Source: Escherichia phage aaroes. From it: DNA of 51,662 bases. Positions 44,492 through 46,549 of this stretch are shown one piece after another (positions within the stretch are counted from its first letter, which is position 1; the number at the start of each line of letters is the position of its first letter). Made by a program: the position numbers and the translations under genes. The DNA lies in sequence record NC_049826.1; one strand, 5' to 3'. Under the pieces are notes generated by a model that was not told where the DNA came from, did not search any database, and worked only from the letters and a program-made list of their open reading frames with translations.

Positions 44492-46549
44492 TTAAACATT
44501 GTTGTTTTTCAATTGCTCAATCTCCGCCTTGAGATTGTCAATTTCTGCTTTCATTTCCTTGAAAGCCTCAACATACAGCGCAGACATTGCGTTATAATCG
44601 AGTCCTAGCGGCTTTTCAACGGTTCGACAATCTTTATCTATCACTCCGCTATCCTGAGCATTAGAAAGCACCTTAACAGCCTCCGGCAACACCTTTTGCA
44701 CGTCCTGAGCAATTAGGCCAGCATTCCTGACCGTATCTTGTATCGTGGTATGCATTGAGTACACAACACCTTTCAGCGTGCATAACTTCTCAAGCGCCCC
44801 CGTTACTGGTTTGATCCAGAATTTCGCCCTTTCGTCTGAGGTATTAGTAAACGTTGTTGCTCTAACCTCGCCAGTGTTACCATTCAGAGACATGCCCTGC
44901 CCAGTTGCACCAGTTGCTCCATTATCTGATCTAATGCTCAAAATGTTTGCATCAGAGGCATAAATAACGCCACGACTACGACCGGAAGTATTGCGCAACC
45001 AAAGGTGTGTGTTGTCAGTTCCAGCGTTTCCTTTTACCGTCAATGTAGAACCGCCAACAGTAACGCTATGACTTGTTTCAACATCCGATCCTCTAAGTGA
45101 GATGGTGGATGATAAGGCAATATAATTTTTTCTTTTATAGTTATACATCGTTACATCATCAGCGTCTGCCCCCCTTCCTACATACCACAAGCTAGAATTA
45201 TCAGTATTATTACCAGCAACATAGCAAGAGCCATTAGCCGAACCAGGTTTTACAATCACACCAGGGCCGTTAATGTGGGCTATCAAGTTGCCATTACTTA
45301 AAGTCAGAGGCTCGTTGAACTGAGATCCATAACCAGGAGCGCCGATTACAAAAGGTGTAGAATGATAAGTTCCATCATCATTGTAACGATAAATAGCATA
45401 GGCTTTAGTGGTAGACATACCAGCACGGAAAACAACCTTATCGTTTCTCATGTATGACACAAACCCGGTATTATCCGATATTGCCCTGATCAGAATGCTG
45501 TCTTGTGCATACTTCCCTGTTGTTCGAATCTGTCCTACTTCTGAATACTGTTGTGTAGAAGTGAACCCCAAGAAGTAATGATCAGCATGAGATCTCAATG
45601 ATTGCGGTGCTGCCTGGTAGCTGAATAATGCAGCGCCAGAATCTTGACGTTGAATCCTCCATGCACCACCATCAAACACAAAAGCATAATCAGGCGTTCC
45701 GGTTGGCTTGTCAGTCTCACTAAACATGATCGTAGGGTTACTGCTTGAGATCAGCAATGGCTTTGCATAAGTTGAATTAAGCGTTGCGTGACCACCAGTG
45801 ATATCGACACTTGCCGGATCTTGTATAGCCATTCCCTTTAAAGCAAGGTTATCACGTGCCTTTGCCTTGTCAGCAACATCAGAAAGGTTATTCTCCTTTT
45901 GCATCAACTTGTCTGTTTCAAAAGAATCCGCAAGGCGTTGAGCGCGATCAGCTTCGTTTTTCGCAGTAGTCGCAGAACCAGCGGCGGCAGTTGCAGAACC
46001 AGCGGCGGCAGTTTTCGACGCATCAGCGGATTGCGCTGATTGTGCGGCCTGAGTCTTTGACGTGTTAGCGGCTGTTTCGCTCGCCTTTGCGTTTGTCTCG
46101 CTTGTCTTAGAATTAGTCTCGCTTGTCTTTGCTGCGGAAGCGCTTTGCTTTGCTGATTCAGCGCCTTGCTTGACTTGATTTACAAGATCCTTCAATCCTT
46201 CAAGATCAAAGTCTCTAAAAAATTCAATTGCTTCCGCGATCTCTGTTTCTTTGCTTTGATAGTAACGCAATGTTTCAGCTACATCTTGAGCAAGACCATC
46301 AACAGTTATTGAGTCATGAAGTAAGATCGCGTAATTTGAACGGGTAACTACCGCGCCACCAGTTGTAATTGCACGAATGCTTGTATCGTTAATAACTTCA
46401 GTTATCACGGCAATCTGCAACGGCTGAGTTAAAAATACAATAGTTGCACCAGGGCGAATGAGCGTTAGTTGCTCTCGCCATTTCGTGTCGTATCCAGTGA
46501 TATAACCTTGAGCGTCCATTGACGCTTGTCCGGTCCTGTAAATTGCCAT
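44492..46549 (-). CDS. tail fibre with C-terminal intramolecular chaperone (peptidase S74-like) domain
   Basis: GGGAG RBS before ATG 46549; Ser/Thr/Ala-rich low-complexity linker; C-terminal [11 protein letters not shown]...[15 protein letters not shown]...coiled-coil tail typical of auto-cleaving chaperone domains. Confidence 0.7.
45971..46012. repeat. perfect tandem 21-bp duplication inside the tail fibre gene
   Basis: GCAGAACCAGCGGCGGCAGTT twice in tandem, encoding the in-frame heptad AAAGSAT twice. Confidence 0.85.

Follow-up and report, generated by a model that had tools for sequence, protein, structure and literature searches.

Introduction

S74-chaperoned fibres are a textbook class of phage proteins. 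Besides endoNF of phage K1F, we take the Peptidase_S74/ICA family to include the L-shaped tail fibre pb1 of T5, K5 lyase, GA-1 gp12 and MyRF. The catalytic dyads are S911/K916 in endoNF and S587/K592 in MyRF, with a Ser-to-Lys spacing of five (PMC8326128). The genes for the lateral tail fibres of Drexlerviridae have SSB/recombination genes on one side and primase/helicase genes on the other, and only the far N-terminus of these fibres is conserved among members of the family; their presence in the virion and a surface glycan as their primary receptor have never been directly demonstrated, even family-wide (PMC8594841). In the Klebsiella phage depolymerase Depo32, the segment homologous to the shaft described below was named a "helical-bundle domain" (PMC10581125).

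Here we compare with these systems a tail fibre gene of Escherichia phage aaroes. The window analysed is the whole sequence record NC_049826.1, 51,662 nucleotides in length. The gene is already annotated in RefSeq in a described phage, and the significance of the analysis beyond annotation is small. Its modest new points are that the "linker" of the fibre is a heptad array, that a two-copy heptad within it is fixed and has undergone a concerted substitution, and that the deletion alleles of the shaft are heptad-quantised.

The fibre gene and its locus

The minus-strand ORF spanning 44492..46570 is the sole long ORF of the region. Its start was placed at ATG 46549 (MAIYRTGQ...), which follows the Shine-Dalgarno sequence GGGAGA at a distance of 7 nt, and MAIYR/MALYR forms the N-terminus in all homologues, including the solved homologue 7VYV. 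The other candidate start, ATG 46570, was rejected; no homologue supports it, and the Shine-Dalgarno sequence lies ahead of 46549 instead. The exact protein is found in RefSeq as YP_009901947.1, "tail fiber protein [Escherichia phage aaroes]", and it matches PHROG tail-fibre families with E down to 2e-111, which bears out the original prediction of a tail fibre.

The backbone of the aaroes genome is 95-97% identical to Hanrivervirus-type Drexlerviridae (vB_Eco-B1.3, grams, egaa, vojen). The fibre gene has as neighbours an SSB-like gene (42041-42487), a primase gene (46648-47682) and a helicase gene (48133-50244), and the 54 phage records that match its DNA cover just the 5' 18-30%. It therefore has both the locus position and the N-terminus-only conservation of Drexlerviridae lateral fibres, and we regard its product as the lateral tail fibre, a single polypeptide, of a coliphage that is T1-like (Drexlerviridae, Hanrivervirus-like). 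A terminator-like hairpin follows its stop codon (Table 1) and a second one, at 46615-46631, follows the upstream primase gene; in a consensus promoter scan, sites were no more numerous than in shuffles.

Table 1. Features of the aaroes fibre gene, in window coordinates.
Feature	Residues	Position	Strand	Basis or remark
Lateral tail fibre gene	685 aa + stop	44492..46549	minus	ORF, database match, PHROG families
Intrinsic-terminator-like hairpin + T-run		44465..44486	minus	directly after the fibre stop codon
Peptidase_S74 domain (predicted intramolecular chaperone/autocleavage)	571-685	44495..44839	minus	Pfam, dyad, terminal helix
Distal, presumably receptor-binding, beta-rich part	240-570	44840..45832	minus	
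Heptad-repeat alpha-helical shaft (predicted)	116-209	45923..46204	minus	heptad pattern, AF2 helix
21-bp perfect tandem duplication, two copies (heptad TAAAGSA twice)	180-193	45972..46013	minus	
Imperfect tandem heptad pair	141-154	46088..46129	minus	
273-bp deletion junction in KTSETN-type repeats		46109..46135	minus	BLAST against L011, P0003, P0002
N-terminal virion-anchor domain	1 to ~100	46250..46549	minus	Depo32 homology, DNA conservation

Three minus-strand genes (233, 107 and 163 aa; PHROGs 9288, 9157 and 8329, function unknown) lie downstream of the fibre at 42746-44323; the 233-aa product (PHROG 9288) has a Gly-rich N-terminus and ends in CCGC. Loci of the damhaus, PHB17 and P0085 types have the same trio behind the fibre gene. 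An HNH_3 endonuclease gene takes its place in the loci with the closest fibre alleles (P0002, P0003, P0004), so the aaroes fibre locus is a mosaic. An HNH_3 homing-endonuclease-like gene adjoins the fibre gene downstream in several relatives (L021, L025, L027), and it could promote the exchange of fibre modules.

Two further observations concern the surroundings of the gene. The SSB-like protein has an 18-bp and 9-bp periodic repeat at 42394-42436, which encodes a Gln/Pro-rich tail (QPQQQQQ...) just before the acidic DDDIPF tip. Many unannotated "Campylobacter phage" records (MG0656xx) contain a T1-like fibre N-terminus at 81-94% identity and resemble coliphage-type Drexlerviridae rather than Campylobacter phages.

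Domain organisation of the fibre

Residues 1-170 match Depo32 (7VYV/7VZ3/7LZJ) with E 2e-58, and the anchor domain at the beginning of this match is the only part of the fibre conserved across Drexlerviridae at the DNA level. The AlphaFold2 model, which is that of a monomer built on a 42-sequence alignment and has a pTM of 0.29 as a whole, contains a beta domain at residues 1-77 (pLDDT 70-88).

The distal part includes a match to gp37_trimer (PF20744) at residues 434-508 (window 45026-45250, E 5.8e-6) and predicted strands at 430-570 with pLDDT 80-91. It had no match of at least 85% DNA identity in 50,697 phage records and is 93-96% DNA-identical to metagenome alleles. Among the matches listed in the protein search, the aaroes-type tip was present only in the 90% cluster of the aaroes fibre protein (17 members) and in a few other alleles, including the more distant P0005.

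At residues 571-626 the C-terminal part matches positions 1-58 of the 58-position profile of Pfam family PF13884, Peptidase_S74, scoring 45.5 bits where the cut-off is 22 (E 9.5e-12). The domain opens with S571-D-E-R-A-K576 (Ser571 codon at 44837-44839, Lys576 codon at 44822-44824). S571, D572 and K576 are invariant in the alignment of 42 homologues, and the Lys stands five residues after the Ser, as expected for the dyad. Among solved structures, those closest in sequence are Salmonella phage S16 gp37 at its C-terminus (6F45), where SSDRRIK aligns to TSDERAK of the aaroes fibre, and the MyRF ICA domain (7DC3). The domain makes up the last 115 residues of the protein, with an AlphaFold2 helix at 652-684. 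The expectation that the C-terminus is an intramolecular chaperone is upheld by the Pfam match, by the invariant S571-D572-x3-K576 and by the terminal helix; from its sequence, the assignment as an auto-processing chaperone domain is well supported, cleavage itself being predicted. By every sequence test, the fibre belongs to the known class of S74-chaperoned phage fibres and tailspikes.

The heptad shaft

Between the anchor and the distal part, 13 consecutive heptads begin at residue 120, and 10 of the 13 show the Ser3/Ala7 register. Position 3 reads L, G, nine S, E, L (LGSSSSSSSSSEL) and position 7 reads V, A, A, S, eight A, F (VAASAAAAAAAAF), which amounts to a core of two positions spaced 3-4, with hydrophobic residues (L/V and L/F) at the ends and Ser/Ala between them. 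The observed concentration in one heptad phase was reached in only 21/20000 shuffles. At the DNA level, self-identity of the shaft is 0.53 at lag 21 vs ~0.32 at other lags. AlphaFold2 predicts the shaft as a single uninterrupted helix of 94 residues with pLDDT 44-73. Unbroken heptad periodicity and a predicted helix, the marks of a coiled-coil shaft, thus coincide in this segment. Residues 135-212 also weakly match the helical segment 189-268 of T7 gp17 (E 0.001); Foldseek with the whole monomer model against PDB had no match with E <= 0.001, one elongated chain taken from a trimeric fibre being an unsuitable query.

Judging from the heptad pattern and from the helix predicted in the monomer model, the shaft is most likely a coiled coil, and most likely a trimeric one. 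Could the segment instead be a flexible, unstructured or glycosylatable linker? We consider this very improbable, because a strict 7-residue Ser/Ala register, closed by hydrophobic residues at either end, is kept through 13 heptads, the natural indels (see below) are all multiples of 7 residues, the predicted helix is continuous, and the authors who described Depo32 name its segment a helix bundle (PMC10581125). In favour of a flexible linker are the low-complexity composition, the only moderate AlphaFold2 confidence in this segment and the homologous part of Depo32, which is invisible in the cryo-EM maps (PMC10581125). The Ser/Thr/Ala-rich "linker" of the original prediction is nevertheless better understood as a shaft of regularly repeated heptads, for which a single long helix is predicted.

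The 21-bp tandem duplication

Near the distal end of the shaft, the unit GCAGAACCAGCGGCGGCAGTT occurs at 45972-45992 and again at 45993-46013 with no mismatch; on the coding strand the repeat reads A ACT GCC GCC GCT GGT TCT GC, twice. The repeat reported earlier in the linker does exist, one base away from the 45971-46012 given for it. Tandem Repeats Finder placed it at 45968-46013 (period 21, 2.2 copies, score 85) as the top tandem repeat in the window. Since the expectation for a perfect 21-nt tandem copy by chance in 51.6 kb is only ~1e-8 (5e4 x 4^-21), the duplication is not a product of chance. It corresponds to exactly one heptad, in register, and adds ~1 nm. An assembly artefact was also considered and rejected, the repeat being present in >10 independent assemblies. 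Another tandem repeat of period 21 lies at 22081-22121 of the window (2.0 copies, 80% match, score 54), and a duplicated heptad of some structural gene may likewise be its origin.

How old is the duplication, and does its copy number vary? The full-length fibre query gave 976 matches in the protein search, of which 120 were listed, and the repeat was scored in its flank context, i.e., QSADASK (or the P0004 junction), unit, unit and T(T/A)AKNEADRA. Among the matches listed, 23/23 distinct full-length proteins with these flanks had exactly two units, and alleles with 1 or 3 copies were found neither in these 23 proteins nor in L011, damhaus and PHB17. The two-copy carriers comprise three tip domain types and two anchor types. 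For example, damhaus has two units, both with C>A on the plus strand, so that they encode TAAAVSA twice; PHB17, whose anchor variant and tip both differ, carries two units at a period-21 identity of 41/42; and in the metagenome contig L011, 95% identical over the gene's full length, a single difference separates the two units. In 7 more distant proteins a diverged heptad (e.g., SAAANSA or SAAASSA) replaces unit 1, and the number of heptads is equal.

Sampling of the aaroes-type module is modest (~25 sequences, many of them closely related), and within it the units differ at 0-1/21 nt. The distant lineages P0087, P0085 and P0010 have the same amino-acid heptads, encoded by DNA units that differ at 6-8/21 nt. 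Because these lineages keep the amino acids despite such differences, the heptad pair is old and, as protein, conserved, and the near-identical DNA version marks one module. This module has spread horizontally to fibres whose anchors and tips differ.

The perfection of the repeat had been thought to imply a recent event, and the two copies in the window are indeed perfectly identical. At a lineage divergence of 3-9%, however, only ~0.6-1.8 differences would be expected between 21-nt copies, so that perfect identity is uninformative on age. Damhaus, PHB17, L011 and the database alleles, 23 distinct full-length relatives among them, carry the duplication between the same flanks, and these carriers are 83-97% identical around it and have other modules elsewhere. 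A recent event private to aaroes is therefore extremely improbable. A short perfect tandem repeat alone is not evidence of a recent or unstable event.

When viral contigs were scanned for the exact 21-mer, the genes found were for the most part unrelated and rich in Ala (L002-L005), PHB17 alone being homologous, and the scan of viral contigs with the downstream flank gave PHB17 only. Metagenome and genome contigs scanned with a flanking 20-mer yielded L011 as a true relative, the other 13 being chance matches in GC-rich bacteria. The protein search with a 164-aa segment of the linker and tip start returned one fragment (P0001); low-complexity handling probably hid the known relatives. The repeat region had no match in 5,426 complete E. 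coli genomes, and on this ground a prophage fibre module was ruled out.

Concerted change in the two units

Damhaus and P0058 share the same G>T substitution (coding strand) in both units, replacing Gly by Val. P0051, which is 98.6% identical to damhaus (30 mismatches/2163 nt), has G in both units. The probability of parallel independent mutation is ~(30/2163)/3, i.e., ~0.005, so gene conversion, or contraction followed by re-duplication, explains the change better than parallel mutation. The comparison shows one concerted event in the sampled history, which does not turn the site into a copy-number hotspot. The repeat is not completely inert, as the identity of its copies and the V/V change show.

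The original prediction also spoke of a length-variation hotspot. If the repeat were a slippage-prone contingency site, its copy number would often change and tune fibre length, and the DNA identity of the two units, the substitution shared by both units of damhaus and P0058 and absent from P0051, the A>G of P0003 that makes the units identical in codon phase, and the right end of the P0004 deletion inside unit 1, at GCCGCCGCTG, could all be understood. Yet the comparison of relatives gave two copies everywhere and never 1 or 3, both in the 23 flank-sharing full-length proteins and in L011, and the carriers are isolates with three different tips and two anchor types. Moreover, next to true contingency tracts a 21-bp unit present twice is poorly suited to slippage, and one heptad is ~1 nm in a shaft of 14-27 nm. 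We consider such a contingency site quite improbable and prefer a duplication fixed at two copies across the relatives compared; within lysates, copy-number variants at low frequency may exist.

Shaft-length alleles

If the duplication does not vary, then we can ask: Where does the length of the fibre change? Shaft length was measured from AETLRYYQ to NLSDV, between identical flanks. The long form of 213 residues occurs in the majority of alleles (P0002, P0003, P0134, damhaus, P0051, PHB17, P0005 and P0043). Compared with it, the shaft of aaroes (122 residues) is 273 nt (13 heptads) shorter, that of P0004 (115 residues) 294 nt (14 heptads) and that of P0058 (108 residues) 315 nt (15 heptads). 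The shaft of P0124, P0126, P0132 and P0135 also has 115 residues, with a junction different from that of P0004, and is 294 nt (14 heptads) shorter as judged from protein length; these 678-aa proteins have one heptad fewer than aaroes within its imperfect tandem heptad pair (Table 1). The nearest relatives of the aaroes fibre are 776-aa alleles with the 273 bp that aaroes lacks.

All length differences among these shaft alleles are multiples of 21 nt (7 residues). The chance that four in-frame deletions all keep the heptad register is (1/7)^4, ~4e-4. On a broader scale, 67/87 homologues with both anchor motifs fall in one class of shaft length modulo 7, over a range of 101-220 residues.

BLAST of the aaroes gene against L011, P0003 and P0002 gave two collinear pieces, offset by 273 nt and overlapping at gene positions 415(397)-441; the segments of relatives compared with the junction were L011 2730-3235, L027 and L025. 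In the long alleles, the missing segment is flanked by a 14-nt exact direct repeat, GCAAAGACAAGCGA. The deletions of P0004 and P0058 have the junction repeats GCCGCCGCTG and ACAAGCGAAACA, and the junctions of all three alleles lie at exact direct repeats of 10-14 nt. The long form accompanies three tip types, and every short form has a junction of its own; it follows that the long form is ancestral and that aaroes carries a 273-bp deletion. The four deletions (13, 14, 14 and 15 heptads) are independent, each between short KTSETN-type direct repeats. Length variation thus sits in the same shaft, at repeats other than the 21-bp duplication.

Were these deletions selected? The Ser/Ala shaft might serve as a heptad-quantised length "ruler", with deletions selected to match the fibre's reach to the thickness of the host's O-antigen or capsule rather than arising as neutral by-products of recombination between repeats. 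We think this rather unlikely. Among near-identical fibres, at least four recurrent in-register deletions have taken out 13-15 of ~26 heptads and shortened the shaft from ~27 nm to 14 nm. The natural whole-heptad alleles and the half-length aaroes shaft could in any case point to permissive in-register splice points, at which tips could be swapped or length changed in fibre engineering.

A model of the aaroes fibre

The explanation that we hold to be very probably correct is an S74-chaperoned lateral fibre with a heptad shaft, in which the in-register duplication of one heptad is fixed and length changes by larger deletions. In this model, three chains would assemble, and their N-terminal beta domains (residues 1 to ~100) would dock on the virion. 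Residues ~116-209 would form a helical shaft of 13 heptads and ~14 nm with a Ser/Ala core, most likely a trimeric coiled coil, and residues 240-570 a distal part that presumably binds the receptor. The Peptidase_S74 domain (571-685) would act as an intramolecular chaperone that nucleates trimerisation and would then cut itself off at Ser571 by means of the Ser571/Lys576 dyad, leaving a mature fibre of 570 residues.

Within the shaft, the 21-bp duplication adds one extra heptad near the distal end and is fixed in a horizontally shared module; occasional gene conversion accounts at least in part for the near identity of its two copies. Fibre length changes through in-register deletions of 13-15 heptads between KTSETN-type direct repeats, and the deletion in aaroes has halved its shaft. 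The domain assignments, the heptad pattern, the copy numbers and the deletion alleles on which this model is built were observed directly; the trimeric state, the actual cleavage and receptor binding are its predicted elements.

Comparison with known systems

The aaroes fibre resembles endoNF of phage K1F and the Peptidase_S74/ICA family in the C-terminal position of the domain and in its Pfam S74 match. The Ser-x4-Lys dyad of endoNF, S911/K916, corresponds to S571/K576. The likeness extends to the terminal helix, which is expected to form a trimerising coiled coil, and to the beta-rich part of the fibre before it. EndoNF and T5 pb1 are too distant from the aaroes fibre for phmmer on PDB, and aaroes cleavage is predicted by sequence.

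Depo32 of the Klebsiella Webervirus GH-K3 (7VYV/7VZ3, also 7LZJ) shares with the aaroes fibre the anchor and the first stretch of the "helical-bundle" segment with its KTSE-NAK heptads, and both phages belong to Drexlerviridae. In Depo32 a beta-helix capsule depolymerase follows, without S74 in the description of the solved chain, whereas aaroes has a different distal part and an S74 domain. The T7 gp17 fibre, with its proximal coiled-coil rod, resembles the aaroes fibre in that an alpha-helical shaft comes after an N-terminal domain that binds the tail, but its match to aaroes residues 135-212 is borderline and composition-driven, and unlike the aaroes fibre it has no S74 domain.

The fibres of damhaus (gp24), PHB17, IsaakIselin and Henu8 share with aaroes the locus, the N-terminal anchor, the S74 C-terminus and the same shaft module, including the two-copy heptad. 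In contrast to aaroes, these fibres have a tip of another type, and the aaroes shaft is 13 heptads shorter than theirs.
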